Of a DNA stretch of 64,000 bases, positions 1,605 to 22,981 are shown piece after piece. Below the pieces are notes generated by a model, which saw nothing but the letters and a program-made list of their open reading frames with translations, had not been told where the DNA came from and ran no database searches. Both the position numbers and the translations under genes were made by a program. Origin of the DNA: an uncultured Candidatus Saccharibacteria bacterium (GTDB lineage: Bacteria > Patescibacteriota > Minisyncoccia > Phycocordibacterales > UBA1006); contig CAZQDL010000001.1 in NCBI GenBank assembly GCA_964592365.1, positions 79,541 to 143,540 of the forward strand, in the 5' to 3' direction. Position 1 is the stretch's first letter. Each line of letters starts with the position of its first letter.

Positions 1605-1647
1605 TTAAAAAAACACCAATATGGTGTTTTTTTGATATAGTTTGTAT

Positions 1648-2082
1648 ATGGAAATGAATATTCAAAACGAAGAGCAGTTACCTATACTTGTTGACCGTAT
1701 TATGAACATGATATCTCAATCAGATACCTTTGCTACAGTAATTTGTCTTGAAGGAGATTTAGGGGCAGGAAAGACTACCTTGAGTAAAGCATGGGCTCAA
1801 TATCTTGGAATATCAGAAACGGTAACAAGTCCTACCTTTGTTATCCTTAAAGAATATGAAACAGCTCATGATCAATACAAAAAGCTAATTCACATTGATG
1901 CGTACCGACTTTCATCAAAAGAAGAACTAGAGTATTTAGGTTGGGAACAATTACTATCTGATCGTCAAAATATTATTCTTCTTGAATGGCCAAGTATGGT
2001 TAAAGGTATATCAATGCCACATGTATACACCTTGAGTATTGAGATTAACAAAGATCATTCAAGAACTTTTAACTTTAAATGA
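1648..2082 (+). CDS. tsaE: tRNA threonylcarbamoyladenosine biosynthesis ATPase TsaE (YjeE family)
   Basis: P-loop GDLGAGKTTL followed by the SPTF motif. Size is about 145 aa. The ATG at 1648 is preferred; the TTG at 1642 in the ORF track lies inside the -10 box. Confidence 0.75.
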   Translation: MEMNIQNEEQLPILVDRIMNMISQSDTFATVICLEGDLGAGKTTLSKAWAQYLGISETVTSPTFVILKEYETAHDQYKKLIHIDAYRLSSKEELEYLGWEQLLSDRQNIILLEWPSMVKGISMPHVYTLSIEINKDHSRTFNFK

Positions 2083-2095: not shown

Positions 2096-4447
2096 ATGAA
2101 GAAACCAATCATCTTACTCCTTGATGCTCATGCCATTATTCACAGGGCATATCATGCACTACCTGACTTCGCTACAAGAAGTGGTGTACCTACTGGAGCT
2201 ATTTATGGTTTTGCTACGATGGTTCTTAAAATCATAGATGATTTCAAGCCAACATATGTTGTTGCTTGTTTTGATCTTCCTGGAAAAACCTTTCGACATG
2301 AAAGTTATACCGAATACAAGGGAACTCGTTCTCAGACAGATACAGCTCTTAAGATGCAATTTGAAGCTACACGAGAGCTTTGTGATATTTTTGGTATTCC
2401 AATATATGATGCACCTGGATTTGAAGCTGATGACATGCTTGGAACAATCTGCACCCAATTAAAAGGAAAAGATTTTGATATTATCATTGCCTCAGGAGAT
2501 ATGGATACTCTTCAGTTAGTTGAGAAAAAAAGAGTGCAAGTATATACCCTAAAGAGAGGATTGAATGATACTGTGGTATATGATGAGCAAGCAGTATTTG
2601 ATAGATTTGGTTTCAAGCCAGCACAACTTATCGACTACAAAGGGTTAAGAGGAGATGCTTCTGATAATATTCCTGGGATAAAGGGTATTGGAGAAAAAAC
2701 CGCAGAGATAGCTATTCAGCATTTTGGAACCCTTGAAAATTTATATTCTTCCTTAGAAAAAGATGAGCAATTATTAATTGATGCTGGGTTAAGCAAACGA
2801 ATGGTTCAACTCATTAAAGAAGGAAAAGAAGATGCAGAATTCTCAAAGATACTTGCTACTATTCGACATGATGCCCCTATTGAGTTTTCATTACCCAAAC
2901 ACGCTTGGGGAGAACTTCTTGATATGGAAAAAGCAACCACCTTTTTTGATACATATGAATTGCGTGCCTTACCTGCTCGGTTACGAAGTTCAATGGGTAT
3001 TCAAGAAAAGATAGAAGAAAAACCAGAAGAAGTAATTGATCAAAAAGATTTTTCAAAAACTGCATTAGCGTTATGGCTACTTGATTCTGAAATGAAGGAA
3101 GCGAGTCTTGAAGATATGTTGATTTTCTCAAAGAAAAAAAGTTTTTTTGAAGCATCAGCATATATCACAGAACAGCTAAAGCATGATGAACCTTCGTACA
3201 AAATCTTTCAGCATATTGAAATACCATTGATGTCTGTAATCACTCATATGCAAGACCGAGGTATTAAGGTTGATGGAAATTTCTTTAAAAATCTTTCACG
3301 TGAATACCATCACAAACTTGATGCATTAGAAAAAGAAATTCAAGAAATGGCTGGTATGGATTTTAACCTAAGATCACCAAAACAACTCTCTGAGGTTCTG
3401 TTTGAACATATGGGTCTTTCAACAAAGGGTATTAAAAAATCAGGAAAGTCAGGAGTGTATTCAACCAATGCACAGATGCTTGAAAAATTGTTAGAAGAAC
3501 ACCCTATTATTCAACACATTCTTGATTACAGGGAATTGGATAAGCTGGTAGGTACGTACATTGATGTTATCCCTGACATGGTTTCTGATGATGGAAGATT
3601 ACATGCACAATTTATTCAGAACGGAACTACCACAGGAAGATTTTCCTCAAAGGATCCTAATATGCAAAATATTCCCACAAGAAGTGACCTAGGAAGAAAG
3701 ATACGAGAAGGATTTATCGCCGAAACAGGATATCAATTAGTTTCTTTTGACTATTCTCAAATTGAATTACGCTGTCTTGCTATGCTTTCATCAGACCAGA
3801 AACTCATTGATATTTTTAATGAAGGGAAAGATATTCATACGGCTGTTGCTTCTCTTATAGGAAATGTTCCTGAAGATGAAGTTGATAGGGAAATGAGAAG
3901 AAAAGCAAAGATTGTTAACTTTGGAATTCTCTATGGAATGGGAGTTAGTAGCCTGCGAAAGCAGATGGATACCGATAGGTTGGAAGCTCAAAAATTCCAT
4001 GATGGATTTTTCGAACAGTTCAAAGAGGCTACGGCATACCTAGAAGCAACGAAAGAGCATGCAAGAGCACATGGATACACCACAACTCTTTTTGGACGCA
4101 GAAGACAGTTTAAGAATATCAATTCAAAGCTTCCATTTATTAAAGCAATGGCAGAAAGAATGGCATTGAATGCACCTATTCAAGGAACTTCAGCAGACAT
4201 GATAAAGCTTGCAATGGTTGAGGTATATGAATATCTAAAACAAGAAACAGATATTGATGCACATTTTGTGTTGCAGATTCATGATGAAATTATTTTCGAA
4301 GTAAAAGATACAGATATTGAATTATTTACTACTAAGGTGAATGATATTATGGTTAATATATTGAGTTCTTCATATCTCTCGTATCATCCACCTATTCCTT
4401 TAGTGGTTCACTATTCAACAGGAAGACACTGGGGTGAGTTAAAATAA
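2096..4447 (+). CDS. polA: DNA polymerase I (5'-3' exonuclease plus polymerase domains)
   Basis: N-terminal 5'-nuclease motifs (LLLDAHAIIHRAYHA, GIPGIKGIGEKTA). Polymerase motif A DYSQIELR, motif B RRKAKIVNFGILYG and motif C QIHDEI. The ATG at 2096 follows the tsaE stop; the 2039 start would overlap tsaE. Confidence 0.9.
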   Translation: MKKPIILLLDAHAIIHRAYHALPDFATRSGVPTGAIYGFATMVLKIIDDFKPTYVVACFDLPGKTFRHESYTEYKGTRSQTDTALKMQFEATRELCDIFGIPIYDAPGFEADDMLGTICTQLKGKDFDIIIASGDMDTLQLVEKKRVQVYTLKRGLNDTVVYDEQAVFDRFGFKPAQLIDYKGLRGDASDNIPGIKGIGEKTAEIAIQHFGTLENLYSSLEKDEQLLIDAGLSKRMVQLIKEGKEDAEFSKILATIRHDAPIEFSLPKHAWGELLDMEKATTFFDTYELRALPARLRSSMGIQEKIEEKPEEVIDQKDFSKTALALWLLDSEMKEASLEDMLIFSKKKSFFEASAYITEQLKHDEPSYKIFQHIEIPLMSVITHMQDRGIKVDGNFFKNLSREYHHKLDALEKEIQEMAGMDFNLRSPKQLSEVLFEHMGLSTKGIKKSGKSGVYSTNAQMLEKLLEEHPIIQHILDYRELDKLVGTYIDVIPDMVSDDGRLHAQFIQNGTTTGRFSSKDPNMQNIPTRSDLGRKIREGFIAETGYQLVSFDYSQIELRCLAMLSSDQKLIDIFNEGKDIHTAVASLIGNVPEDEVDREMRRKAKIVNFGILYGMGVSSLRKQMDTDRLEAQKFHDGFFEQFKEATAYLEATKEHARAHGYTTTLFGRRRQFKNINSKLPFIKAMAERMALNAPIQGTSADMIKLAMVEVYEYLKQETDIDAHFVLQIHDEIIFEVKDTDIELFTTKVNDIMVNILSSSYLSYHPPIPLVVHYSTGRHWGELK

Positions 4448-4481
4448 ACAGCAATGCTGTTTATTTTGATATACTAAACAT

Positions 4482-5177
4482 ATGATTTTTTTAGTGTCAG
4501 GAAATAGTGAAGATAGGAAGTCTTATATTCATAAACAGATAAAAGAAGCAGGAGGAGATCCTGCAAAAGCTGTACGCATTACTGATACAGATATCAATGA
4601 GACCTGTTCCTTTAGTGATCTTGTTGTTAAGCAGGTAGGACTATTTGGTGATATTGAATACTATATTATCTCTGACCTTACTCGTTCATTGGATATAAGA
4701 AATATTCTGAATACCTTTAAAGAATCACCTCACTATTTATTCTTTTCAGAAGAAAGTGTAACAAAACCAATCATTTCAGCTTTTGAAAAAATAGATGCAA
4801 CCATACAATCTTTTGAGAAAGAGATTGTTGAAAAGAAAGAAGGAGGTAATAATATTTTTGTACTTTCTGATTTACTTGGAGCAAGGGATAAGAAAAATCT
4901 ATGGATTGCATATCATCAGGCATTGTCTTCAAGCTCCGTTGAAGAGATCATTGGGATACTCAATTGGCAGTTAAAAAATATGATACTGGTATATCAACAA
5001 CCTTCAGGGGTAGCGAGTATGAAACCTTTTGTATTTTCAAAAACACAGAGGTTTAATAAAAACTATTCTGAACATGAGGTTAGAGAATTATTAGTTTCAC
5101 TAACCAAAGCATTTCATTCACGAGATATTCATCACACACTTGAAGTTCAAGTAGAAGAAATTATTTTAGGATTATAA
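4482..5177 (+). CDS. DNA polymerase III delta subunit-like protein (HolA-like), short form
   Basis: The C-terminal helical region (LSDLLGARDKKNLWIAYHQAL...IIGILNWQLKNMILV) resembles the HolA C-domain. The gene sits next to polA. Confidence 0.4.
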   Translation: MIFLVSGNSEDRKSYIHKQIKEAGGDPAKAVRITDTDINETCSFSDLVVKQVGLFGDIEYYIISDLTRSLDIRNILNTFKESPHYLFFSEESVTKPIISAFEKIDATIQSFEKEIVEKKEGGNNIFVLSDLLGARDKKNLWIAYHQALSSSSVEEIIGILNWQLKNMILVYQQPSGVASMKPFVFSKTQRFNKNYSEHEVRELLVSLTKAFHSRDIHHTLEVQVEEIILGL

Positions 5178-5196: not shown

Positions 5197-6165
5197 TTAT
5201 AATACGCCAACTATCTTTGCGATAAATACTGCATAGAAGAATAGCATAGCTATTCCTTCCCATGGTCGTACCTTATTATCAAACGTAACAAAGATGGCGA
5301 TAAAGGTTGCAATAACTAAAAAGGGTAGGCCAATAATGAATGTGGTGTCTGCAATTCCAAGAGGAGTTATGAGTGCTGGAATTCCTGCGATGAAAAGAAG
5401 GTTAAAAGTATTTGAACCAAGTACATTTCCAACAGCCATTCCGTGATTTCCTCTTTTTACCGCTGCAACTGAAGTAAGAATTTCAGGTAATGAAGTTCCG
5501 AGAGCAACTACGGTTATGGTGAGCATTGAAGAGGTGATGTTCAACAGTTGTGAGAGCATAAGAACACTATCAATAAGGTACTTAGCTGAAACTGAAAGTA
5601 TTCCAATACTAAGAACAATTGCTCCACTATAGATTAAGATACTCTTCTTTTTTGCTGATGGATCAGTATTTTCTTCAACAAGATCTTTCATTTCATCAAC
5701 ATCTATTAATTCAGGTTTTTGTCGAATGTTGTAAATTATGAAAATAATAAAGAATACTAACAGAGCAATTCCTTCAGGTGTTGAAATTACCTTATCAAGG
5801 GCAAAGTATCCAAATAGTGCCATCGACATAAAGAAGAAGGGAAGATCAACATCAATTAGGGATGTATTTATTTTTAATGTTTTAGCAGCAATTCCTGATA
5901 TCCCTAAAATTAATAACGCATTAGCAATATTAGAACCCACTATGTTATCAACAACAAAGGTTGTTTCACCTGCGTTAAGTGCGAATAAAGATGATACCAA
6001 TTCAGGAAGCGATGTTCCAACAGCAACGATGGTTGCCCCAATAATGAAAGAACTCATTCCAAAGAGTAATCCAATTCGCTCACTGTACTCGGTAAAGTAG
6101 TCAGCTGATTTAATTAAAAAGAATAAACTAGCGATAAGTATTCCTATCCAGATAATGATTTGCAT
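5197..6165 (-). CDS. Ca2+/Na+ antiporter, CaCA family (YrbG-like)
   Basis: Two alpha-repeat signatures GTSLPEL(V/I): GTSLPELVSS and GTSLPEILTS. About 10 predicted TM helices. Confidence 0.8.
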   Translation of the reverse strand: MQIIIWIGILIASLFFLIKSADYFTEYSERIGLLFGMSSFIIGATIVAVGTSLPELVSSLFALNAGETTFVVDNIVGSNIANALLILGISGIAAKTLKINTSLIDVDLPFFFMSMALFGYFALDKVISTPEGIALLVFFIIFIIYNIRQKPELIDVDEMKDLVEENTDPSAKKKSILIYSGAIVLSIGILSVSAKYLIDSVLMLSQLLNITSSMLTITVVALGTSLPEILTSVAAVKRGNHGMAVGNVLGSNTFNLLFIAGIPALITPLGIADTTFIIGLPFLVIATFIAIFVTFDNKVRPWEGIAMLFFYAVFIAKIVGVL

Positions 6166-6195
6166 ATGGAGGTATCATATCATTTTTTTCTCAGA

Positions 6196-6305: not shown

Positions 6306-6382
6306 ATGTCGATATGTAAGGCATTGCCGAACGTTGTAGATAGTATTACAGCATTGACTTAAGGTCAACACATATCTACAGT

Positions 6383-6868
6383 ATGAATATGCAATATTCA
6401 GTTCTCTTACATAATATTAGAAGCGCTCACAACGTTGGTTCTATTTTTAGAACTGCTGATGCAGCTGGTTTTTCTCATGTATATCTTTCAGGATATACCC
6501 CACTTCCCATTGACCGTTTCGGAAGAAAAAGAGCAGATATTGATAAGGTTGCACTAGGAGCACAAGAAATTGTTTCTTGGTCTGAAGTGAAAGATATTGA
6601 AATGTTTCTTCGTTCACATTATGTAGTTGCGGTTGAACAAGATGAACGTTCAATTCCATATGATAGCTTTGAAGCACCAAAAGAGGTACATGAATTAATT
6701 TTGATGATGGGCGAGGAAACTAAAGGAATTGAAAAAGAACTTCTTGTTGATGTAAGCTCTATTATTGAAATACCAATGAGGGGAGAGAAAGAATCTTTAA
6801 ACGTATCAGTCGCTTTTGCTGTTGTTGCTTATGAGATAACAAAAAACCACTTAAGAAAAAGTTCTTAA
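6383..6868 (+). CDS. SpoU/TrmH-family RNA 2'-O-methyltransferase
   Basis: SPOUT motifs (HNVGSIFRTADAAG, ESLNVSVAFAVVAYE). Size is about 160 aa, similar to TrmL. Confidence 0.7.
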   Translation: MNMQYSVLLHNIRSAHNVGSIFRTADAAGFSHVYLSGYTPLPIDRFGRKRADIDKVALGAQEIVSWSEVKDIEMFLRSHYVVAVEQDERSIPYDSFEAPKEVHELILMMGEETKGIEKELLVDVSSIIEIPMRGEKESLNVSVAFAVVAYEITKNHLRKSS

Positions 6869-7562: not shown

Positions 7563-8825
7563 TTAAAATATTTCAATTTCTTTTGATATATAAATATCGG
7601 GATCAAGTAACCTTTCATAGCTTTCTGATCCATTTTTATATTTTATTTTTTCAATGACACATTTATATTTTCCCTTAGGAAGTTGGGCAACGATTCCAAT
7701 TTGAAAATTTTCAGTTCCGTTTTGATCAATAATATAATCATTTGCATACACAAAAGCATTTGAACCCATATACACTGAAATATCCGAATCAGACACAGAA
7801 ATTTTTTGTTGAGTTCCAGTGTTAATAATCGAAAATATAATACTGCTCTTACCAACCTTTGAAATATATGCAGGTGCCTCAAAAGCTTCAATCTCTACTT
7901 GATATTCAAAGACTCCTTTGTTGTTGAAAGTAATAGCTTCACTTTTTATTAAAGCAACATCGATGCCTTTTGAGAATAAGAAATAATTTCTCATATCTGC
8001 TGATCCAGTAATATCTAAGCTTGAAAGTGTATTTGCCTCCTCATCGAATGCAACAGTTTCTTGAAGACTTTTTTCTGATACTTCAAAAGAAATTCCCTGT
8101 CCCTCTTGATAATTATTGTTCTGCTTCATATATGTTACAAAAACTTGTACATCATATATTTCACCATTACTTAAAAGCATATTTTGAGTATTGAAGATTA
8201 CAAGTTCCTTTGTGGTTCCTTGAATACTTCTATGATCCCATGCATTAAAATCTTTTCCATCAATTGATATAGACATATCAGAAATAATTAAATTAAAAGA
8301 TTTCCCATGAGTATCTACCTCAAAAGATATTTTACCTAAAAGAACATCTGCAGATTCAGCTGGCACCTCAAGACTAAAAACATATGATTCAATAGAATCT
8401 GAGATATCATTTTCATCTACCTCGTATCGAGTATATGAAATTGGGCAATTCTCTGAGCTTGAAATGATTAATTCAACCGGTAAGTTGGTCATTACCTTTT
8501 TTGAAAATAGGACTTCTCCCGTTTTTGTTTCTAAAAAAGTAATTGCTATTTCAGTTTCTGGCTCAAGCCCTGAGATAGTTTCAATTCCATTTTCTATAGA
8601 GCCTACATATTCATATGTAGTGATTTCAGTATTATTCTCGCTTTGTATTACAAGACGAGTAGTTTCTTTTTCTCCTGCCTTAATTGAAAATGTAATTTCG
8701 ATTTCTCGAGAACTTGTCTTGGTAACTTCAAATGAGGTTACTCTTGTTGGTTCTGCGATAATATCATCATCATTTTGACATGAAGATAAAAGTGAAAGGA
8801 AAAAGATGCATAAAAGTTTTTTCAT
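7563..8825 (-). CDS. Hypothetical lipoprotein (420 aa)
   Basis: Signal plus lipobox MKKLLCIFFLSLLSSC. No recognisable catalytic motifs. Confidence 0.5.
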   Translation of the reverse strand: MKKLLCIFFLSLLSSCQNDDDIIAEPTRVTSFEVTKTSSREIEITFSIKAGEKETTRLVIQSENNTEITTYEYVGSIENGIETISGLEPETEIAITFLETKTGEVLFSKKVMTNLPVELIISSSENCPISYTRYEVDENDISDSIESYVFSLEVPAESADVLLGKISFEVDTHGKSFNLIISDMSISIDGKDFNAWDHRSIQGTTKELVIFNTQNMLLSNGEIYDVQVFVTYMKQNNNYQEGQGISFEVSEKSLQETVAFDEEANTLSSLDITGSADMRNYFLFSKGIDVALIKSEAITFNNKGVFEYQVEIEAFEAPAYISKVGKSSIIFSIINTGTQQKISVSDSDISVYMGSNAFVYANDYIIDQNGTENFQIGIVAQLPKGKYKCVIEKIKYKNGSESYERLLDPDIYISKEIEIF

Positions 8826-8914
8826 GATGTTTATTATTTAATTGTTAGTGTTATTTATTTTAACAATATAATTTAATTTTAATTTGTCAATTTATATAAG
8901 GTATTAAAAAAGCC

Positions 8915-9490
8915 CTATGAATTACTTAGTATGTTCAGGGCTTCTTTTATTTTCTCATTCATTTGGGTTGTTTTAGTATCAATTTTTGCAAGAGCATTGA
9001 GTGCTTGAGCAGGACTATAGCCAAGAGCAACTAAAGCATCAATCACATCACGATCACCTTCATTTGTATGAATTTCTGTATTTCCTGCATAGTTTTTAAG
9101 CTTATCCTGTAGTTCAATACACATACGTTCTGCTGTTTTCTTTCCAATTCCTGGAACTGAACTAAGAAAATCAATATTCTTTGAAAGAATTGCTTGATAT
9201 AGGGTGTCAGTTGAAGCAAGACCAATGATGGCTAATCCTGATTTTGGTCCGATTCCAGAAACATCAATTAATTTCTTGAAAAAGAACAATTCATTTTGTG
9301 TTTCAAAACCATATAGATCAAGAGCATTTTCTCTTACCAAAGTATGAATCCAAAGAGAAATATTTTTCTGGGTTAATGCCCAAGCTAGGGTATTTTCAGT
9401 AACAAGAATTTGATACCCTACATCTCGTACATCGAGGATAATGGTTCCTTCTGTTGATTCAAATGCTTTTCCTGAGAGATATCCAATCAT
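8915..9490 (-). CDS. ruvA: Holliday junction branch-migration protein RuvA
   Basis: N-terminal OB fold (MIGYLSGK...GTIILDVRDVGYQILV), two HhH motifs (GIGPKSGLAII, VPGIGKKTAERM) and the C-terminal domain III. Confidence 0.85.
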   Translation of the reverse strand: MIGYLSGKAFESTEGTIILDVRDVGYQILVTENTLAWALTQKNISLWIHTLVRENALDLYGFETQNELFFFKKLIDVSGIGPKSGLAIIGLASTDTLYQAILSKNIDFLSSVPGIGKKTAERMCIELQDKLKNYAGNTEIHTNEGDRDVIDALVALGYSPAQALNALAKIDTKTTQMNEKIKEALNILSNS

Positions 9491-9504
9491 ATAACTAGTA
9501 TATC

Positions 9505-10455
9505 ATGGAGTATCTATGTATTATATATAATATGAACTTTAATCCAGAAAAAATTAATATTCCTGAAAAAAGGGGAATATTAGAAAATGAAAAGCATCTA
9601 AATATTCTATATGAAAGAATAGAGAAAAAACTTGCTAGTTATAAGCCAGATCTTGAAGATTTTCGGGATATCTATTTTGATGAAGTTGATAAAGATATGG
9701 TTTATGTTGAAGAAAAATTGAAACAATTTGATGAATCATTAAATAACAGAGAGGATGGAGATTTTTTTAAGAAAGAAAAAAAAATTGCTCTTATCACTGA
9801 GGGAATTCTTACAGACCAATTATCAGGAGAGTGGTTTAACTCTCTTAAAGAGGACGCTCCATATACTGTGGTTGCACATCCAACTTCAGATTTTGATGAC
9901 ATACGTAATGGGGCTGATTTGGTTCTAGAAGTTTTTAACAAAGACAAAGAGCAATCAAAACACTTGGGATTATCAATTGACGTTACTTTTTCTTCAGATA
10001 TTGAAAATCTTAACAGAAAGATGGAAAGGATAATTGGAGATATTACAGGAAAACATGGAAAACCTGCTCAAGTAAAATATTTTGAAAGTGATTTTGATGA
10101 TTACAAAGGTGCCGTAACCATCGCAAGAAGTGTTATTGTTCTTTCAAGAAATACCATAGAAGATCTCTTTAAAAAAGAATACTCAAGAGACAAAGACGGT
10201 CTTTCAAGTCACCAAGTTCAGCTTTCATTGCTCACCCAACTTCAAGAGCAAGCAGAAACTTTTTTACAGTTATGTAAGGTTCATGGAAATTCAGAACTTG
10301 GAAGTATTTATGAGGATATTTATAAAAATATCAAATATCTCAAAGACGAGAAAAAAATAAGTCATTTTGAATTAGAACAAGACCCAATATTACTTCAAGA
10401 AAAGTATGACGGTCTTAAATTACTGCATCGAGCATTACTCAATAACATAATGTAA
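9505..10455 (+). CDS. Hypothetical protein (316 aa)
   Basis: Long ORF with coding-like composition. No motifs recognised. Confidence 0.4.
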   Translation: MEYLCIIYNMNFNPEKINIPEKRGILENEKHLNILYERIEKKLASYKPDLEDFRDIYFDEVDKDMVYVEEKLKQFDESLNNREDGDFFKKEKKIALITEGILTDQLSGEWFNSLKEDAPYTVVAHPTSDFDDIRNGADLVLEVFNKDKEQSKHLGLSIDVTFSSDIENLNRKMERIIGDITGKHGKPAQVKYFESDFDDYKGAVTIARSVIVLSRNTIEDLFKKEYSRDKDGLSSHQVQLSLLTQLQEQAETFLQLCKVHGNSELGSIYEDIYKNIKYLKDEKKISHFELEQDPILLQEKYDGLKLLHRALLNNIM

Positions 10456-10457
10456 AA

Positions 10458-11222
10458 ATGAATATAGACATTCTTTTTGAAAATAAACACGTCCTCATCA
10501 TTAATAAGCCTGCTGGTTTAGTGGTCCATCCCGATGGGAAAACAACCGAACCTACTGTCGTAGATTGGGTTCTTGAAAGATACCCAGAAATCAATGGGGT
10601 AGGTGAAGATATGGAATTTGATTTCAAAGGAGAAACCATTTGTATTAAAAGACCGGGAATTGTTCATCGTATAGATAGAGATACTTCAGGTTGTTTGGTC
10701 ATCGCAAAAACTGAAGATTCATTTCAACATATCAAACAGCTTTTCAAAGACAGAAAAATATCAAAAACATATCAAGCTTTGGTATATGGTGCGATACCAA
10801 AAGATCAGGGAATTATAGATGCCCCTATTGGAAAAAGCAGAAAGGAATTTCGTTTGATGCAAGCTGGCCCTGATGCTCGCGGTTTACTTCGTGATGCTTA
10901 TACAGAGTACAAGGTACTACAGAGATTTGAAGATATACATGATATAGATAAACAAAAGCAAACAGCAAAATATACTCTTGTCTCTTTATCACCTAAAACA
11001 GGAAGAACTCACCAACTTAGGGTTCATATGAAATATATACATCACCCTATTGTTTCTGATTCTCTGTATAAGGGTAAAAGAAAGAATGTCTTGGGTATGG
11101 AACGCACAGCTCTTCACGCAATGAGCATTTCTTTTGTTGATCTTGATAATATGGAAATTAATGTTGTCTGTGATATTCCACAGGACATGCAACATTCTAT
11201 ACAAAGACTCTCTACAATGTAG
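10458..11222 (+). CDS. RluA-family pseudouridine synthase
   Basis: Catalytic motif HRIDRDTSG and the downstream HQLRVHM motif. Confidence 0.8.
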   Translation: MNIDILFENKHVLIINKPAGLVVHPDGKTTEPTVVDWVLERYPEINGVGEDMEFDFKGETICIKRPGIVHRIDRDTSGCLVIAKTEDSFQHIKQLFKDRKISKTYQALVYGAIPKDQGIIDAPIGKSRKEFRLMQAGPDARGLLRDAYTEYKVLQRFEDIHDIDKQKQTAKYTLVSLSPKTGRTHQLRVHMKYIHHPIVSDSLYKGKRKNVLGMERTALHAMSISFVDLDNMEINVVCDIPQDMQHSIQRLSTM

Positions 11223-11262
11223 AGATTTTTTGTATACTAATAGAAACAAAAAATAATCTGAC

Positions 11263-11718
11263 ATGAAAAAACTTAATACCTTTCCTCATCTGTATGGATA
11301 CAATAAATCTACACGGATATTTAATTTCAGTGAGCCAAATTGCATGAAACTAAATGAAAACTACTTCAGTAGTATTCTTGATATGATGCAACAAGAAATC
11401 AATACCATATATAAATGTAATATTATGCTTATCCACGATCTCTTTGATAGAGAATGTATTTCACAAGAGATGTATCATAATATTGTTGAAGTTCCGTTAG
11501 TTGATTTAAGTGCACAAGTAACTACATATTTTCAAGATGACTGTAATGAACAGATAACTCATTTGGTATTAGTTGTTCCACTTGAAAAAGAACATGAAAC
11601 AGTTGAGTTATTAGAAGCATATTTTCAAACATTCATCGTTGGTGTGAATAAATTTATATATGTTCCAACTGATGCAATAGAGACGCTCTTCTTTAGAGCA
11701 AAAAAGCTTATCAATTAA
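11263..11718 (+). CDS. Hypothetical protein (151 aa)
   Basis: ORF only. Confidence 0.35.
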   Translation: MKKLNTFPHLYGYNKSTRIFNFSEPNCMKLNENYFSSILDMMQQEINTIYKCNIMLIHDLFDRECISQEMYHNIVEVPLVDLSAQVTTYFQDDCNEQITHLVLVVPLEKEHETVELLEAYFQTFIVGVNKFIYVPTDAIETLFFRAKKLIN

Positions 11719-12056: not shown

Positions 12057-12566
12057 ATGGCAACAACAGCAACACAATTTCTCCCTGCTGACGTACAAAA
12101 TCGAAAAGATTTTGATGTACGTGCAGGTGATACCGTAAAGGTGAATCTAAAGATTCAAGAAAAAGGTAAAACTAGAATTCAAACCTTCCAAGGTCTTGTT
12201 CTTGCGCGAAAGCATGGAGCAGAAAATGGAGGAACTATTACCGTTAGAAAAGTTTCAAACGGAATTGGAGTAGAAAGAATTTTCCCGTTATATTCACCTT
12301 CAATTGATTCAATCGAAGTACTACGACGAGCTAAGGTTCGACAGTCTAAACTATACTTCCTAAGAGATGTAGTATCAAAGACTCTACGATACAAACTTCG
12401 AAGAATTACTGATCTAGGAACTTCAACAGGAGATCTTGATCCAATTGAATCAATGACTCAAGGAGAAGATACAGAAATTTCAGAAGAAGATATGATGGAA
12501 GAAGCAACTGAAGAAGCAACTGAAGAAGCAACTGAAGAAGTAGCTGAAGAAGAAAAAGAAGCTTAA
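12057..12566 (+). CDS. rplS: 50S ribosomal protein L19 with an acidic repeat C-terminal extension
   Basis: L19 core (DFDVRAGDTVKV...GKTRIQTFQGLVLARKHG...ITVRKVSNGIGVERIFPLYSP). The start is trimmed to the ATG at 12057. The C-terminus carries an EEATEEATEEATEEVAEEE repeat. Confidence 0.85.
   Translation: MATTATQFLPADVQNRKDFDVRAGDTVKVNLKIQEKGKTRIQTFQGLVLARKHGAENGGTITVRKVSNGIGVERIFPLYSPSIDSIEVLRRAKVRQSKLYFLRDVVSKTLRYKLRRITDLGTSTGDLDPIESMTQGEDTEISEEDMMEEATEEATEEATEEVAEEEKEA
12498..12557 (+). repeat. 12 bp tandem repeat (GAAGAAGCAACT, about 5 units) inside the rplS 3' end
   Basis: Read directly. It encodes the EEAT repeats. Confidence 0.8.
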
Positions 12567-12580
12567 GCTTCTTTTTTTCT
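12555..12580 (+). terminator. rplS terminator (GAAGCTTAAGCTTC palindrome plus T7)
   Basis: Hairpin overlapping the stop codon, followed by a T-run. Confidence 0.6.
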
Positions 12581-12582
12581 TT

Positions 12583-12590
12583 GGTATAAT
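12583..12590 (+). promoter_or_regulatory. -10 box TATAAT lying 8 nt upstream of the ATG at 12599 (leaderless-type)
   Basis: TGGTATAAT-N8-ATG. Confidence 0.45.
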
Positions 12591-12598
12591 GTTGGTAT

Positions 12599-12850
12599 AT
12601 GACAAAAGATATATCAAACATTGAATTAAAAAAACATCTTAATCGTTTCCTTATGATCACAGAATTATTCTTTCTTGTGGTTGTTGTGCTTAATGTTTTG
12701 AATCCTAAAGAAGGAGTAAGTATTGAATTAATACAAAAGAATCTATCTGAGGGGGTAACTTTTACGATTACTATCGTAGCTCTACTCATTGCACTGATGG
12801 CTCATGTATACCGAGGATGGCTTAAAGATTTTGATTTTGTTGCAAAATAG
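12599..12850 (+). CDS. Small membrane protein (83 aa)
   Basis: Hydrophobic ORF directly downstream of a promoter-like element. Confidence 0.35.
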   Translation: MTKDISNIELKKHLNRFLMITELFFLVVVVLNVLNPKEGVSIELIQKNLSEGVTFTITIVALLIALMAHVYRGWLKDFDFVAK

Positions 12851-12887
12851 TTTTGAGTTGAGAGAAGGATAAAGGTATACTATATAT

Positions 12888-13889
12888 ATGGAACTTATTT
12901 ATACAATCATTACCCTTATTCTTAGTATCTCTGGATTTTTAATTGCAGAGAAAATTATTCTCATGAAGAAGAAACCTGAACCAATTACTTGTCCAATTGG
13001 TTATTCATGTGATGAGGTTATTAGAGGAAAGCATTCAACATTCTTTGGTATCCCTACTGTTAATATTGGAAGACTCTTTTACCTTGGTATGACATCCTTC
13101 TTTTTGGTAAATGTATTTCTTCCAATGCCTCAAGAACTTACATTTATTGCTTTGTTAATTTCTGGTTTTGCTTTGTTAACTTCATTTTACTTAACCTTTG
13201 TACAATTATTAGTAATTAAAAAGTGGTGTAGTTGGTGTTTATTCTCAGCTCTTATCAATCTATTTCTCTTTGTAATTGTTTTTCTAGGGTATTCTGAAAC
13301 CTTCGTTGAATTTCTTTTTAGTTATCGACATCTTCTTGAATGGTTATTTGTTGCATCAACACTTATCGGTACACTTGCAACAACACTCCATGCTTCACGA
13401 TTTATAATCTTCTTAAAAGATTTCAAAATTACGAAAGGTGAATACAAAAGATTAATTATGTATTCACAGACTGCTTGGGTATCCATTGCATTTGCATTTC
13501 TTTCTGGAGCTGGATTAATCCTTACTGATGTATATCGTGAGATTACTGGAAATTCTGAGTTCATGGTTATGGGTATTATCATTGGGGTACTCATCGTATA
13601 TGAATTTATCCAGAATATGATTATCGCCCCTCAACTTATTGATATTCATTTTGGTGACAAACCTAAACTTGATGATGTGGAACATAACTATCAGAGAAAA
13701 ATTGCATTTTCCTTTGTGATGGTAGGTGTAGTTTCATGGTACATGCTTCTACTGTTTTCAAACTTTTCATGGCATGAATATGAACCTCTTTTCTTACTAT
13801 GGATCTATACTGGTGTGATTATCGCATCAGTTGCACTAGCTCTTGTTTTTGAAAGACTTATCTACAAAAAATCATTGCTCGAGGAATAA
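12888..13889 (+). CDS. VKOR-family (vitamin K epoxide reductase-like) thiol oxidoreductase fused to an extra C-terminal polytopic membrane domain
   Basis: Loop cysteine pair (ITCPIGYSCDE) and a TM CXXC (KKWCSWC) in the N-terminal ~140 aa. About 4 additional TM helices follow. A TATACT -10 box sits 6 nt upstream of the ATG. Confidence 0.6.
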   Translation: MELIYTIITLILSISGFLIAEKIILMKKKPEPITCPIGYSCDEVIRGKHSTFFGIPTVNIGRLFYLGMTSFFLVNVFLPMPQELTFIALLISGFALLTSFYLTFVQLLVIKKWCSWCLFSALINLFLFVIVFLGYSETFVEFLFSYRHLLEWLFVASTLIGTLATTLHASRFIIFLKDFKITKGEYKRLIMYSQTAWVSIAFAFLSGAGLILTDVYREITGNSEFMVMGIIIGVLIVYEFIQNMIIAPQLIDIHFGDKPKLDDVEHNYQRKIAFSFVMVGVVSWYMLLLFSNFSWHEYEPLFLLWIYTGVIIASVALALVFERLIYKKSLLEE

Positions 13890-14169: not shown

Positions 14170-14367
14170 ATGAAAAATCAATCAAAGAACGATGAAAACA
14201 TTGAGTTACTGACCTTGCAAGAGGCTTGTGACGTACTCAAGGTACATCCCAACACCTTACGACAATGGGATAAAATAGGAACGCTTCCCGCTATTCGCAT
14301 TGGGACCAAGCGTATACGACGTTACAGAAAACAAGACATTATGAGTTTCCTTGAAGGTAACTCATAA
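14170..14367 (+). CDS. Small HTH DNA-binding protein of the excisionase (Xis/MerR-like) family. Possible island excisionase or R-M controller.
   Basis: LTLQEACDVLKVHPNTLRQWDKIGTLPAIRIGTKRIRRY matches the excisionase-family helix-turn-helix pattern. It is the first gene after tRNA-His and the first gene of the methyltransferase operon. Confidence 0.55.
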   Translation: MKNQSKNDENIELLTLQEACDVLKVHPNTLRQWDKIGTLPAIRIGTKRIRRYRKQDIMSFLEGNS

Positions 14368-14398
14368 GAATACCAAGACTCATCAGATTAAAATTACT

Positions 14399-15061
14399 AT
14401 GAACAATCTTACTAAATCAAAAAAACGAATACGTGACCATGGTGAAGTTTTCACCCCTGATTTTATTGTGGAAGATATGCTTGATTTGGTGAAAAATGAA
14501 ACTGAGCGTATAGAGTCACGCTTTCTTGAGCCCGCGTGTGGAGATGGAAATTTCTTGATCAAAGTACTTGAACGAAAGATGGAGGTTGTAAAAAAACGAT
14601 ACAAGAAAAGTCAATTTGATTATGAGAGAATGGTGCTCATTGCTGTGGGAAGTACATACGGAGTTGATTTACTAGATGATAACGTCAAAGATGCACGTGA
14701 TAGGTTACATGAATACTGTGCGAATGAATATATTAAACTATTCAAAAATAAGGTTCACGAAGAGGTATTAGAAAGTATGAGATACATTTTAAGTAAAAAT
14801 ATCTTACAAGGTGATGCTTTGAGTTTAAAAAACAAAAATGGCGAACCGATAACTTTTGCAGAATGGTCTCTTGTAAATGGTTCAAAAATAAAACGCAGAG
14901 ATTTCCAATTTGTAGACCTTGCTGAATTTGACCCAGCTATCCCAAGCTTGTTTTCTGTCAGTGAAGAGTCAGACACGGGTAAGGTAGTATTTTCGCCACA
15001 ACCATCAATAGATTATCCAGCAGTAAATTTTATGAAATTACATGAATCATATGAAAACTAA
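14399..15061 (+). CDS. N6-adenine methyltransferase-like protein. It has the SAM-binding motifs X and I but lacks the catalytic motif IV.
   Basis: GEVFTPDFIV (motif X) and FLEPACGDGNFL (motif I). A possible motif III is ILQGDALS. No (N/D/S)PP(Y/F/W) follows. Start trimmed to the ATG at 14399. Confidence 0.45.
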   Translation: MNNLTKSKKRIRDHGEVFTPDFIVEDMLDLVKNETERIESRFLEPACGDGNFLIKVLERKMEVVKKRYKKSQFDYERMVLIAVGSTYGVDLLDDNVKDARDRLHEYCANEYIKLFKNKVHEEVLESMRYILSKNILQGDALSLKNKNGEPITFAEWSLVNGSKIKRRDFQFVDLAEFDPAIPSLFSVSEESDTGKVVFSPQPSIDYPAVNFMKLHESYEN

Positions 15062-16565
15062 CCTTAACTACAATCCAGATGTACTTGATGCACTTGCTAA
15101 CCTTAGTAACGATGAGGTCTTTACACCACCAAAACTTGTAAATGAAGTCCTAGATATGTTACCTAGCGAACTTTGGAATGATAAGAATGCAACATTTTTA
15201 GACCCAGCAACAAAGTCAGGAGTATTTTTACGAGAAATTGCAAAACGTTTGATTGAAGGACTTGAAAAAGAAATTCCAGATCTACAAGAACGACTTAATC
15301 ATATCTATACCAAACAATTATTTGGCATTGGAATCACAGAACTGACTTCGTTACTCGCCCGCAGGAGTCTCTATTGTTCAAAAATAGCAAATCACGAAAA
15401 ATACTCGGTATGTACAGAATTTGAAAACCCAGATGGAAACATTAGATTCGAGCGCATTGAACATGCTTGGAAGAATGGAAAATGTGAAGACTGTGGAGCG
15501 AGCGAAGGTGAGTATGATCGACATGAATCGCTAGAAACCCATGCCTATGAATTTATTCATAAAAAACCAGAAGAAATTATCAGTTTATTTAATAAAAAAG
15601 ATATGAAATTTGACGTAATTATAGGAAATCCACCATACCAAATGGGTACTGGTGGTCCATCTGCTCAAGCAACGCCTTTGTACGATAAGTTCGTTCAGCA
15701 AGCAAAAAAACTAAATCCAAGATTTCTATCAATGATTATCCCCGCACGGTGGTACAGTGGAGGAATGGGTCTCAATGATTTTAGATCTGACATGTTGAAT
15801 GATCAACGTTTACGGAAGCTTGTGGATTACACAGATTCATCAGAATGTTTTCCTGGTGTTTCGATTAAGGGAGGTATTTGTTATTTTCTCTGGAATAGAG
15901 ATGACCGTGGTTTATGTAATGTTTTAAGTATTACAAATGGACAAAAAAAAGAATCAGATAGATTTCTAGTTGAAGAAGGAAGTGATATTTTTATTAGATT
16001 CAATGAAGCAATATCAATCTTAAGAAAAGTTAAAGATAAGAAAGAGAAATTATTTTATGAATTTGTTTCTTCACAAAAACCATTTGGATTCCCAACAAAT
16101 TTTAGAGGAAAATCAAAACCATTTAAAGACTCAATTAAAATTTATGTAACAAAAGGCATTAACTATATTGATCGCAACCTTGTTGAGAAAAACATTGATT
16201 TAATTGATAGTTATAAAATCTTGAATACAAAAGGATATGGAGCTGGAGAATCTTTTCCACATCAAATTTTAAATAAACCAATCTTAGCTGAACCAGGAAC
16301 TTGCTGTTCGGAGACATACATTGTATTAGGTATTTATAAAAATAGAGAAGAAGCTGAAAATGCAATTTCTTATATAAAAACCAAATTTTTTAGATTTCTT
16401 GTTATGCTACAAAAGAACACTCAGGATTCCTTAAAAAGGGTTTATAAATTTGTTCCAATACAAGATTTTTCAGAAGAATGGACAGACGAAAAGTTATATA
16501 AAAAATACAAACTAACCAAAGAAGAAATTGATTTTATCGAATCAATGATTCGACCAATGGAATAA
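15042..16565 (+). CDS. Gamma-class N6-adenine DNA methyltransferase (Eco57I/TaqI-like motif order X-I-IV) with a 4-Cys insertion
   Basis: DEVFTPPKLV (X), FLDPATKSGVFL (I) and FDVIIGNPPYQ (IV). A CxxxxxxxxC...CxxC zinc-ribbon-like insert lies between motifs I and IV. Confidence 0.75.
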   Translation: MNHMKTNLNYNPDVLDALANLSNDEVFTPPKLVNEVLDMLPSELWNDKNATFLDPATKSGVFLREIAKRLIEGLEKEIPDLQERLNHIYTKQLFGIGITELTSLLARRSLYCSKIANHEKYSVCTEFENPDGNIRFERIEHAWKNGKCEDCGASEGEYDRHESLETHAYEFIHKKPEEIISLFNKKDMKFDVIIGNPPYQMGTGGPSAQATPLYDKFVQQAKKLNPRFLSMIIPARWYSGGMGLNDFRSDMLNDQRLRKLVDYTDSSECFPGVSIKGGICYFLWNRDDRGLCNVLSITNGQKKESDRFLVEEGSDIFIRFNEAISILRKVKDKKEKLFYEFVSSQKPFGFPTNFRGKSKPFKDSIKIYVTKGINYIDRNLVEKNIDLIDSYKILNTKGYGAGESFPHQILNKPILAEPGTCCSETYIVLGIYKNREEAENAISYIKTKFFRFLVMLQKNTQDSLKRVYKFVPIQDFSEEWTDEKLYKKYKLTKEEIDFIESMIRPME

Positions 16566-16566
16566 T

Positions 16567-19071
16567 ATGTCTGACAAATACTTTTCACAACGGCCAGATG
16601 TATCGCCGATAATATATGTATATGAACTCCCAACTGCAGAGGACAGAAAGGGTCTCTTGAAGGTGGGTTACACCACTCGAAATGCCAGCGACCGAATCAA
16701 GGAACAAGTTGGGACCGCAGGGATTGGATATAATATCCTTTTGGAAGAAAGTGCAATTCGCAGTGATGGATCTACCTTTGACGATCATGAGGTACACCAT
16801 TATTTACGCAAAAAGAAATATCCTAACCCTGACGGTGAATGGTTTGAGTGTGGTTTGGATGATGTAAAAGCAGCTATTTATTCTATAAAGAATCGAAAAG
16901 AAAATACCGAAAATCGTACGCTTGATTTCAGAATGAGACCAGAACAAGAAATGGCTATGAATAAAGCATATAGCCATTTCACATCCATGAATGAAACTTC
17001 TCATTTTTTGTGGAATGCAAAAATGCGTTTTGGTAAAACATTTGCTTCGTATCAACTTGCAAAGAAAATGAAATCAAAAAAGGTCCTGGTATTAACCTTC
17101 AAGCCAGCAGTAGAGACCGCTTGGGAGGAAGATCTTTTGACGCATATAGATTTTGAAGGATGGCAATTCTATTCACGTAAAAGTACAGCAGAGTTTGAAG
17201 ATCTTGACATGAATAAACCAATCGTTTGTTTTGGATCATTGCAGGATTATCTAGGGAAAAGTTCAGGAGGAGGAATCAAGGCTCGAAACAAATGGGTTCA
17301 TGATACCCATTGGGATTTAGTTATTTTTGATGAATACCACTTTGGTGCATGGAATGATAAAACAAAAGATCTTTTTGATGAGACCGATAAGGATGATCAG
17401 AATACTGAAGAGAAAAAAAACGACAGTATCGCCAAAGAAGCATTTGCTGAGGGTTTGAAAAACGCTGAGGCAATAATGCCTATAACCACGGATAATTATC
17501 TGTATCTTTCAGGTACTCCATTTCGTGCTATAAATACGGGTGAATTTATAGAAGAGCAGATATTTAATTGGACGTATTCTGACGAACAGCGTGCAAAAGA
17601 AGAATGGAAGGGTTCCAATAATCCATATGAATCATTGCCAAAAATGATTATGATGACCTATCAAATGCCTGATTCTATCAAGCATATAGCGGAAGGGGGC
17701 GAATTTAATGAATTTGATTTGAATGTTTTTTTCTCTGCAAAAAAGAATGATACTGGCATGTATGAATTCGTGTATAAAGATTATGTTCAAAAGTGGCTAG
17801 ATTTATTGCGAGGTAATTTCATGCCAACGGCAGTTGATGATTTGAAACTAAGTAAGCAGAAACCGCCTTTCCCATTTTCTGATTCACGAATGTTGAGTAT
17901 CTTAACGCATACGTTTTGGTTTATGCCTTCAGTGGCCTCTTGTCACGCCATGAAGAATCTTATTGACGAGCGACAAAATGCATTCTATCAAGATTATAAA
18001 TTGATCGTCGCTGCTGGAAATCAAGCTGGAATGGGAGTAGAGGCTCTTGGTCCAGTACAAAAAGCAATGGGCGATCCATTAAAAACAAAAACTATTACAC
18101 TATCTACGGGAAAACTTACAACAGGAGTTACTGTGAAGCCTTGGACTGGTGTCTTGATGCTTCGTAATTTGAAAAGCCCTGAAACATATTTTCAGACGGC
18201 TTTTCGTGGTCAAAGTCCATGGGTGATTGATAATCCAGATGGAAAATCGCCTAATAAAAAAGAGATTTTGAAAAAACAATGTTATATCTTTGACTTTGCT
18301 CCCAATCGTGCACTTTCTCAAGTTGCAGATTATAGTTCAAATCTAAATGTTACCGAGAAAGATCCAGAGAAAAAAGTTGCAGAGTTTATAAAATTCCTTC
18401 CCATTCTTGCATATGATGGAAGCTCGATGAAAGAGATTGATGCAGGTGGAGTTCTGGATATTGCATTAAGTGGTACCACAGCTACCTTGCTTGCACGTCG
18501 ATGGGAGAGCGCATTATTGGTAAATGTAGATAATGAGACTCTTGCACGCCTTATGTCAAGTGATGAGGCGATGAGAGTTTTAATGAGTATTGAAGGCTTT
18601 CGTTCTTTGAACCAAGACATTGAGACGATCATCAACAAATCTGAATCGGTAAAAAAGACAAAGCAGGAAGCAAGTGAGCGTGAGTTAACCAAAAAAGAAA
18701 AGAAAGAGCTTAGCGATGATGAAAAAGAATATAAGAGTAAAAGGAAAGAGATTCAGGAAAAACTGATCAAGTTTGCAACACGTATTCCCGTATTCATGTA
18801 CCTAACTGATTATCGTGAACGCACACTAAAGGATGTCATCACAAAGCTTGAACCGTCGTTATTCAAAAAAGTAACAGGACTAGAGGTGAAAGATTTTGAA
18901 CTTTTAATGAGCTTGAATATCTTTAATAATGCCCTAATGAATGATGCAGTGTATAAATTTAAACGCTACGAGGATTCCAGTCTTGAGTATACTGGTGTTA
19001 ATCGACATGAAGGCGAAGATGTTGGGGGATTCGATACCGTAACTACAGAAAAAGAATACAAGCAAATGTAA
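16567..19071 (+). CDS. SF2 helicase of the type III Res (ResIII)-like family, with an N-terminal T5orf172/GIY-YIG-like domain. Putative restriction or defence ATPase-nuclease.
   Basis: N-terminus YVYELPTAEDRKGLLKVGYTTRNASDRI...GEWFEC. Helicase motifs: Q-like RPEQEMA, motif I RFGKTFAS, motif II DEYHFG, motif III LSGTPF, and C-terminal RecA-like motifs (LTTG, FRGQS). There is only a 1 nt gap after the methyltransferase stop. Confidence 0.65.
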   Translation: MSDKYFSQRPDVSPIIYVYELPTAEDRKGLLKVGYTTRNASDRIKEQVGTAGIGYNILLEESAIRSDGSTFDDHEVHHYLRKKKYPNPDGEWFECGLDDVKAAIYSIKNRKENTENRTLDFRMRPEQEMAMNKAYSHFTSMNETSHFLWNAKMRFGKTFASYQLAKKMKSKKVLVLTFKPAVETAWEEDLLTHIDFEGWQFYSRKSTAEFEDLDMNKPIVCFGSLQDYLGKSSGGGIKARNKWVHDTHWDLVIFDEYHFGAWNDKTKDLFDETDKDDQNTEEKKNDSIAKEAFAEGLKNAEAIMPITTDNYLYLSGTPFRAINTGEFIEEQIFNWTYSDEQRAKEEWKGSNNPYESLPKMIMMTYQMPDSIKHIAEGGEFNEFDLNVFFSAKKNDTGMYEFVYKDYVQKWLDLLRGNFMPTAVDDLKLSKQKPPFPFSDSRMLSILTHTFWFMPSVASCHAMKNLIDERQNAFYQDYKLIVAAGNQAGMGVEALGPVQKAMGDPLKTKTITLSTGKLTTGVTVKPWTGVLMLRNLKSPETYFQTAFRGQSPWVIDNPDGKSPNKKEILKKQCYIFDFAPNRALSQVADYSSNLNVTEKDPEKKVAEFIKFLPILAYDGSSMKEIDAGGVLDIALSGTTATLLARRWESALLVNVDNETLARLMSSDEAMRVLMSIEGFRSLNQDIETIINKSESVKKTKQEASERELTKKEKKELSDDEKEYKSKRKEIQEKLIKFATRIPVFMYLTDYRERTLKDVITKLEPSLFKKVTGLEVKDFELLMSLNIFNNALMNDAVYKFKRYEDSSLEYTGVNRHEGEDVGGFDTVTTEKEYKQM

Positions 19072-19094
19072 AAGAGCCCAAGAAGGCTCTTTTA
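19072..19094. terminator. Bidirectional terminator (AAAAGAGCC-N6-GGCTCTTTT) between convergent genes
   Basis: Read directly. Confidence 0.6.
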
Positions 19095-19104
19095 ATATGA
19101 CTAA

Positions 19105-22980: not shown

Positions 22981-22981
22981 T

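Follow-up and report, generated by a model that had tools for sequence, protein, structure and literature searches.

In the genomes that GeneMarkS-2 places in its 'group C' (Mycobacterium, Streptomyces, Corynebacterium and Deinococcus-Thermus), a TAnnnT box lies 6–8 nt before operon-first genes, 25–50% of transcription units are predicted to be leaderless, and 167 of 262 genes are leaderless in D. deserti (PMC6028130). These genomes are high-GC, as are almost all group C genomes that use genetic code 11 (MetaGeneMark-2 preprint, 10.1101/2022.07.25.500264), and they keep Shine-Dalgarno (SD) sites for their leadered and internal genes. Mycoplasma and other code-4 members of the group have a low GC content and reduced genomes, with 30–60% of genes predicted to be leaderless, but still yield an SD-type ribosome-binding site (RBS) model for the other genes (10.1101/2022.07.25.500264). 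Here we describe a 64-kb stretch of DNA (the window) from a code-11 bacterium of the candidate phyla radiation (CPR), with a GC content of 33%, in which a −10-like box stands 6–9 nt before about half of the start codons and an SD motif before none of 67. The position of the box and the fraction of genes affected are those of group C; an SD-type RBS at the remaining genes was not found. The box also differs from that of group C in that it appears to belong to an extended −10 promoter, often fused to the terminator of the preceding gene.

Scarcity of SD sites is already described close to this lineage. Parcubacteria (Campbellbacteria, Wolfebacteria and a subgroup lacking uL1) have SD sites at 2–5% of genes and no anti-SD core (PMC10783764; PMC9297842; PMC6107228). 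The anti-SD motif is detected in only 48% of Parcubacteria, its loss overlapping the uL1-lacking group (PMC9297842), and Campbellbacteria and Wolfebacteria are SD-scarce and without CCUCC (PMC10783764). The window resembles these genomes in its SD content, and on its contig no rplA follows rplK; it falls in the low-SD range of class iv of PMC10783764 at 0 of 67, counted by 4-mers instead of the thermodynamic measure used there. Those papers establish the loss of SD and anti-SD and are silent on what replaces them in the CPR, whereas the window carries a positive signal, a −10 box at 6 nt combined with translational coupling. Archaeal leaderless transcription (haloarchaea, Sulfolobus; 'group D') is alike in that most units are leaderless and SD sites are dispensable for first genes, but it uses a TATA/BRE promoter about 26 nt upstream, not a bacterial −10 box at 6 nt. 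No report of leaderless mRNAs in the CPR was found in the open-access and bioRxiv literature. The organisation, that of a leaderless-dominant bacterium, is of a known kind; we found no earlier report of it for such a lineage and base composition, and its distinctive features are the absence of SD sites from all genes and the fusion of promoters to terminators.

The window is part of a 228-kb contig (ENA ERZ22297736, NODE_23). Judged by the relatives of its PolA, not by a 16S or concatenated-marker phylogeny, it is a chromosomal part of a member of the Patescibacteria (CPR), Paceibacteria/Parcubacteria group: among 185,579 species genomes, the 80 best PolA loci all came from CPR metagenome-assembled genomes (MAGs), at 49–54% identity, and the titles of the matching MAGs include Nomura-, Taylor-, Kaiser- and Lloydbacteria and Paceibacterota. 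These 80 PolA-selected loci (1.3 Mb in total) were used as the set of relatives. Genetic code 11 was assigned from long open reading frames (ORFs) without TGA and the use of TGA as a stop. The same species is present in JGI samples 3300008002 and 3300025033 (L086-L088), with 99.5% identity across 20 kb; comparison of the two JGI contigs, at this identity, with the window showed no promoter differences and was uninformative. Proteins of the species are indexed in approximately 50–65 blocks of a public collection, so the species is widespread.

Gene starts were taken from the public gene calls on the contig, which give 66 starts in the window; the enrichment was first counted on 67, one of which (position 339) was later found to lie inside a 906-aa gene. 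A box was defined as at least five of six matches to TATAAT or TATACT, 6–9 nt before the start, and an SD site as GGAG, GAGG or AGGA at positions −16 to −4. The first 50 kb of B. anthracis plasmid pXO1 served as a control of equal GC content (33%). Coordinates below are those of the window, on the plus strand unless marked (−).

By these definitions 35 of the 66 starts have a box (35 of 67 as first counted), compared with 102 of 2442 other ATGs (4.2%), giving an odds ratio of 25 (P = 2.5e-28). This amounts to 53% of all genes and about 61% of those that are not translationally coupled, so that the statement of the first-pass annotation that leaderless mRNAs appear to be the norm is a fair one; counting boxes with only four of six matches would raise the share further. 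TATAMT-N6-ATG (M, A or C) occurs 15 times, a count that none of 100 dinucleotide shuffles reaches (3.0 ± 1.7 per shuffle), and an ORF of 80 aa or more begins at 14 of these sites. The excess over the expectation from AT content, which the first-pass annotation had named as a check, was therefore found both in shuffles and against non-start ATGs. The spacing is sharply defined. Among the 35 box starts, 22, 5, 4 and 4 have spacers of 6, 7, 8 and 9 nt, and the distances from TATAMT to the ATG of a long ORF number 14 at 6 nt, 3 at 7, 3 at 8 and 1 at 9, with 0–2 at each other distance from 0 to 30. There are 141 TATAMT in the window and, on both strands, nine TGnTATAMT, all nine of which lie 5–9 nt before a called start. 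In pXO1, none of 37 starts has a box and there is no 6-nt peak; since its GC content is equal, AT-richness does not explain the pattern.

The first-pass annotation had listed 15 ATGs preceded by an extended −10 box, and a TAnnnT box 6–9 nt upstream was found at every one of them. Its details held in part. At 6165(−) the box is present, with a spacer of 8 nt (TGATATGAT-acctccat-ATG) rather than 6; at 1648 it lies 6 nt upstream, and its hexamer reads TATAGT; and the TGn extension is present at 7 of the 15 sites and absent from the other 8. Another 20 of the 35 box starts were not on that list, among them polA (2096), ruvA (9490, −), 19810, 23894(−), 26836, 32177, phosphoketolase (45069), 48508 and 57038.

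No SD 4-mer was found at −16 to −4 before any of the 67 starts, compared with 6.6% of other ATGs, and there was no SD spacing peak, in agreement with the earlier remark that no SD lies between box and ATG. The same test found SD sites at 23 of 37 starts in pXO1 and is therefore able to detect them. In the relatives, an SD 4-mer precedes 7.5% of 1133 genes, near the 6.6% of non-start ATGs in the window, and again has no positional peak. A search for the 3′ end of 16S rRNA (the conserved helix-45 region) gave nothing real in the window or the related loci, and no rRNA was found in the 8 kb upstream and 8 kb downstream of the window on the contig. At 1.4–2.2 kb past the window end (L081 14771-16231), the gene order is secE, nusG, rplK, a 128-aa ORF with no Pfam match and then, on the opposite strand, DHFR. 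Within this interval of the contig rplA (uL1) is missing from its usual position after rplK, and rplJ and rplL are not present either; such an arrangement is consistent with the uL1-lacking subgroup of Parcubacteria, though no proof of membership.

The sequence around the box identifies it as a sigma-70/sigma-A promoter of the extended −10 type. At the window box starts, the three positions leading into the hexamer hold T (25 of 35), G (21) and A (20), and the consensus is T-(A/T)-T-G-A-TATA(A/C)T, with a −35 element weak or absent. For the relatives, a logo was made from 382 starts in the 80 loci, selected on the hexamer alone, with A2 and T6 required. The unselected flanks before the hexamer read T (56%), A/G (68%), T (61%), G (60%) and then n and TATAAT; a weak −35 element, T/T/G at 47/40/26%, is placed for a 17-nt spacer; and the unselected hexamer positions 1, 3 and 4 follow the sigma-70 hierarchy. 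The TRTG '−16' motif is a feature of Gram-positive sigma-A promoters. It emerges only in the clade-wide logo: none of the 14 strict TRTG in the window adjoins a start, and a T-run stands there instead. A classical −35/−10 scan of the window gave 59 sites, fewer than the 86 in shuffles; such a scan is unsuited here because these promoters lack a good −35 element. RNA polymerase usually begins transcription 7 nt past the −10 hexamer, and with the modal 6-nt spacer the A of the ATG would therefore be +1. A pyrimidine occupies −1 at 84% of starts with 6-nt spacing, compared with 71% of starts without a box.

The box also depends on operon position. It is present at 34 of 56 uncoupled starts and at 1 of 11 translationally coupled ones (P = 0.002), the latter beginning anywhere between 4 nt ahead of the upstream stop and 8 nt past it, or overlapping the upstream gene by 20–31 nt. 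No SD precedes any of the operon-internal starts, and their arrangement fits termination–reinitiation. Examples are the junctions TAAtATG at 16563–16569 (ATG 16567, with neither box nor SD) and 22978–22984 (ATG 22982), TAAactATG at 49270–49278 (ATG 49276), TAGtATG at 50661–50667 (ATG 50665) and the ATGA stop–start overlap of an M10 peptidase and alanine racemase (53756–53759). A few genes have a good box 20–24 nt upstream and an A-rich spacer (11263 and 34061); in the first, at 11230–11265, TGTATACT is followed by a 24-nt A-rich spacer without SD and then ATG 11263. Just outside the window, the contig has starts of the short-gap type at nusG and rplK, and a box at 6–7 nt before DHFR, SHMT, CYTH, dCTP deaminase and M3 peptidase genes.

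The claim that the −10 element is often joined to the T-run of the preceding terminator holds for 9 of the 35 boxes. The nine hairpins have stems of 7–12 bp and a minimum free energy over 40 nt of −9 to −18 kcal/mol, and end 4–12 nt before the hexamer; with their T-runs they fit the description of intrinsic (Rho-independent) terminators and are putatively such. Terminator-like sites number 22, compared with 9.6 ± 3.4 in shuffles (1–20 kb). Where a hairpin ends so close to the box there is no room for another promoter, since a −35 region would fall inside the hairpin. The upstream stop codon is held or touched by the hairpin in four cases: at 12551–12578 the TAA (12564–12566) is in the loop, at 47419–47436 the hairpin begins within the phosphoketolase stop codon, and at 48462–48483 and 63538–63558 it contains the stop codons of ackA and murB. 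The median gap before co-directional box genes is 38 nt, and a gap of 25–43 nt accommodates stop, terminator, promoter and start.

On the evidence of profile alignments, the annotated ATGs next to the boxes are the right starts. Protein residues align to profile positions as 1 to 1 for RuvA and the NDH-2-like protein, 3 to 4 for MurB, 2 to 5 for the Fur-family protein, 6 to 4–5 for PolA, 6 to 5 for TyrRS, 7 to 4 for phosphoketolase and 7 to 3 for TsaE (Pfam), while acetate kinase begins MNTLVINPGS. ATG is the start codon of 65 of 67 genes in the window, compared with 29 of 37 in pXO1; such dominance is expected if a 5′-terminal AUG must be recognised, and gene callers favour ATG too. As the first-pass annotation had pointed out, the mechanical ORF list starts instead at TTG codons inside the promoters (1642, 43801, 47438, 50310 and 59106), where the public calls use the downstream ATGs.

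The pattern is conserved in the relatives. Spacings from TAnAnT to the ATG of a long ORF number 249 at 6 nt, 112 at 7 and 73 at 8, over a background of about 40, and a naive first-ATG rule gives a box at 382 of 1133 genes. For polA, the ATG closest to the aligned N-terminus is preceded at 5–9 nt by a box in 45 of 69 species, 29 of them with 6-nt spacing. The hexamers themselves vary (TACAAT in 14, TATACT in 11 and TATAAT in 9), such that the geometry of the polA promoter is kept while its sequence drifts.

We propose that extended −10 promoters put the transcription start at the A of the AUG, the other genes being served by stop–start reinitiation or by A-rich leaders without SD, and give this reading a probability of roughly 85%. 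Most transcription units would be driven by sigma-70-type promoters relying on the extended −10 element, with the −35 weak or absent. With the last T of the hexamer 6 nt, less often 7–9 nt, from the ATG, the mRNA would start 5′-AUG or with 1–3 extra bases, and in most messages the start codon is probably the very 5′ end. Having no 5′ untranslated region (UTR), they would have no SD site, and ribosomes would use initiator tRNA to recognise the 5′-terminal AUG directly, as they do in Actinobacteria, Deinococcus and many archaea. Operon-internal genes, which lack the box, would be translated by termination–reinitiation, and a minority of genes from a −10 box 20–24 nt upstream through an A-rich leader without SD. 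The promoter can often sit directly on the T-run of the preceding terminator because only about 15 bp are needed. Every sequence-level test that was run (motif, spacing, operon position, terminators, starts and SD absence) supports the leaderless or near-leaderless mRNAs suggested in the first-pass annotation. Some points weigh on the other side. The public gene calls were possibly guided by the upstream motif, and the profile check covers only about a dozen conserved proteins. One coupled gene (10458) has a box, and a strong box and tight coupling are both lacking at about 20 genes. Leaders of 1–3 nt are possible at 12 of the 35 boxes, those at 7–9 nt. The pyrimidine at −1, being frequent (71%) without a box too, makes a weak argument. 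Finally, that this organism has lost its anti-SD is something we infer, the 16S tail having been found neither in the window nor in the relatives' loci.

Could TATAMT, instead of being a promoter, act in translation, as a non-SD signal of leadered mRNAs such as an AU-rich enhancer or a ribosome-binding motif? Such signals are used by Bacteroidota (GeneMarkS-2 'group B'; PMC7797042), which are like the window in making no use of SD and in having A-rich regions upstream of leadered genes. The AT-rich genome, the absence of SD, the A-rich sequence before the leadered genes and the frequent T at −1 at all starts would suit such a signal. However, in Bacteroidota the mRNAs are leadered and the motif stands before every gene, operon-internal genes among them, whereas the box here is nearly missing from coupled genes (1 of 11, vs 34 of 56). 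The flanks (TG at −15/−14, TRTG, and a TTG spaced by 17 nt) are also promoter-specific; positions 1, 3 and 4, on which no selection was made, keep the sigma-70 hierarchy; and all nine TGnTATAMT precede genes. Moreover, nine copies of the box lie 4–12 nt past a terminator, where the upstream transcript would already have ended. We consider a translation signal improbable.

Slightly less probable still is that the boxes are promoters but the true starts lie downstream of the annotated ATGs, giving mRNAs with ordinary leaders. Public calls in this species do disagree, for PolA (783 vs 802 aa), SpoU (159 vs 161 aa) and the gene at 9532 (307 vs 316 aa), and CshA and Alr have 10–14 N-terminal residues beyond their profiles. 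Against downstream starts, the box-adjacent ATG matches profile positions 1–5 in RuvA, NDH-2-like, MurB, Fur, PolA, TyrRS, phosphoketolase, TsaE and AckA, the polA box keeps its place next to the ATG in 45 of 69 species, and no SD occurs 3′ of the boxes. A by-product of AT-richness and of T-rich terminators beside ATGs, for which the 33% GC content and the frequency of TATAAT-like hexamers (the 141 TATAMT) would speak, has a negligible probability. It is refuted by the shuffles (15 observed, 3.0 ± 1.7 expected), by the 4.2% of other ATGs that qualify, by the sharp 6-nt peak and by the pXO1 control, a Bacillus plasmid of 33% GC with boxes at 0 of 37 starts.

The individual sites begin with tsaE, where the stop of the upstream 906-aa gene (1602–1604) is followed by a terminator-like hairpin, AAAACACC-AATA-TGGTGTTTT (1610–1630), whose T-run merges into the TGn of the tsaE promoter, tgaTATAGT-N6-ATG (1633–1650, ATG 1648, with TGA-TATAGT at 1633–1641). 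The TGA of the next promoter, tgaTATACT-N7-ATG (2080–2098, ATG 2096) of polA, is the tsaE stop codon. A terminator-like hairpin 3′ of polA (4445–4463) precedes tgaTATACT-N6-ATG (4467–4484), followed by tgaTATGAT-N8-ATG of a Na/Ca exchanger (6163–6182, −) and AATAAT-N7-ATG, weak in its first position (8823–8841, −). The SpoU methylase gene has a weaker box with a −35 element, TTGACT-N17-TACAGT-N6-ATG (6354–6391, ATG 6389). For ruvA, whose profile aligns 1 to 1, the site is tgaTATACT-N6-ATG (9488–9505, −, ATG 9490), and the divergent 307-aa gene has TATTAT-N7-ATG (9516–9534, ATG 9532). The two leaderless-type promoters thus stand face to face within 9488–9534, with starts 41 nt apart and boxes 6–7 nt upstream; public calls in other samples start the plus-strand gene opposite ruvA at 9505. 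CATAAT-N6-ATG of the RluA-family gene (10443–10460, ATG 10458) lies 2 nt past the upstream stop, and the gene may instead be coupled. The hairpin at 12551–12578 is followed by tggTATAAT-N8-ATG (12582–12601), and a VKOR gene has aggTATACT-N6-ATG (12873–12890).

Further sites are agcTATACT-N6-ATG of a T5orf172 protein (19666–19683, −), tgaTATAAT-N6-ATG (19795–19812, ATG 19810), TAAACT-N9-ATG (22225–22245) and ctaTATAAT-N6-ATG (23892–23909, −, ATG 23894). A terminator-like hairpin (24040–24061) ends 4 nt upstream of the box of tgtGATACT-N6-ATG (24063–24080), and another (28086–28107) 5 nt upstream of that of tgaTATAAT-N6-ATG (28110–28127). Between them lie tgaTATACT-N6-ATG (24914–24931), TACAAT-N9-ATG of a pilin-like (N_methyl) gene (25702–25722), taaTATAAT-N7-ATG (26796–26814, −) and ttgTATAAT-N6-ATG (26821–26838, ATG 26836), for which the mechanical ORF list began at TTG 26605. 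These are followed by tgaTATAGT-N6-ATG of a Fic gene (32162–32179, ATG 32177), TACAAT-N9-ATG of a second pilin-like gene, a duplicate of the 25702 site (33303–33323), and tgtTACAAT-N6-ATG of another pilin-like gene (43238–43255). Weaker candidates besides the 35 are those at 6389, 20837, 62540 (MurB, tgtTAGAGT-N6-ATG, 62525–62542), TTG 59111(−) and the alternative ATG 36549, where a candidate tgaTAGTAT-N7-ATG (36533–36551) would place the start three codons inside the called start 36540.

In the last third of the window, a terminator-like hairpin (43771–43799) ends 5 nt upstream of the box of tgaTATACT-N8-ATG (43802–43821). The phosphoketolase gene starts at tagTAGAAT-N6-ATG (45054–45071, ATG 45069), not at GTG 45063, and acetate kinase has ttaTATACT-N9-ATG (47441–47461); the two genes are adjacent (45069–48475), each with its own terminator and leaderless-type promoter. 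They are followed by ggaTATAAT-N6-ATG (48493–48510, ATG 48508), ttgTATAAT-N6-ATG of a MazG-like gene (50310–50327), agcTATACT-N6-ATG of the M10 peptidase (52899–52916), ggcTATGAT-N6-ATG of an ABC exporter (56635–56652, −) and tggTAAACT-N6-ATG of the NDH-2-like gene (57023–57040, ATG 57038). The Fur-family gene has ataTATACT-N7-ATG (59114–59132, ATG 59130), and the divergent ZIP transporter gene a candidate TAGTAT-N6-TTG (59109–59126, −, TTG 59111), a non-AUG start per the public call. Between these two genes a perfect 13-nt inverted repeat, ATATTTTTGCAAA / TTTGCAAAAATAT (59089–59117), overlaps both −10 boxes; it looks like the Fur/Zur operator of an autoregulated pair. The remaining sites are aggTATACT-N6-ATG of TyrRS (60598–60615), tcaTATACT-N8-ATG of a DsbA-like gene (61809–61828) and, after the hairpin at 63538–63558, tgaTATACT-N6-ATG of an M23 peptidase (63562–63579).

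Several other features were seen in the window. A 27-nt element, GTTCCGTATCCTAACCACAAACTGACC, occurs in at least six copies, all on the plus strand (23960–23986, 25580–25606, 26286–26312, which is diverged, 30376–30402, 30995–31021 and 33874–33900), in a stretch of 30% GC with pilin-like and hypothetical secreted-protein genes. The number expected by chance is 0, and most copies lie just 3′ of a stop codon; after four of them (26286, 30376, 30995 and 33874) come an A-run and a variable terminator hairpin. None of the 80 relatives carries the element, Rfam gives no match to it at gathering score, and in one metagenome scan the only match was an unrelated coding sequence. It could be a cassette-boundary mark or a recombination site. 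In the same region, a 300-nt direct duplication with 85% identity (25578–25877 and 33179–33478) covers the promoter and 5′ part of the N_methyl (type IV pilin-like) genes starting at 25720 and 33321. A PIN_4 ORF (40212–40817) and a PhoH ORF (40789–41544, with TTG as its called start) share 29 nt. These domains usually form one PhoH-like/PIN fusion protein, and the pair may come from a frameshift or a sequencing error, or be a split gene. The block at 14170–19668, with an HTH_17 regulator, an Eco57I-type methyltransferase, an 834-aa T5orf172/ResIII protein and a second T5orf172 gene, is probably a restriction-modification or defence island.

The pattern also matters for annotation: gene callers differ over starts in this species, and mechanical ORF lists start at TTG within promoters. 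UTR-based tools such as riboswitches have been proposed for Patescibacteria (2024 perspective, PMC11665869). If most mRNAs have no 5′ UTR, such tools would need rethinking, and expression cassettes should set TGnTATAAT 6 nt before the ATG; for a reporter construct the layout would be TGATATACT-N6-ATG. More broadly, the window would extend abundant leaderless expression, which surveys place almost only in high-GC Actinobacteria, Deinococcus and code-4 Mollicutes, to a deep-branching, low-GC, code-11 phylum. We put at even odds the wider proposal that a class-level lineage (Paceibacteria without anti-SD and uL1) gave up SD pairing, with transcription from the AUG as its default and internal genes read by stop–start reinitiation. 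If true, this would be the first bacterial clade with leaderless initiation as its main mechanism and not alongside SD, and would account for how the anti-SD could be lost and how gaps of 25–43 nt hold both terminator and promoter. The organisation seen in the window would itself supply a positive mechanism for the published loss of the anti-SD in Parcubacteria, and suggests a link between the reduction of the CPR ribosome (no anti-SD, no uL1) and leaderless initiation.

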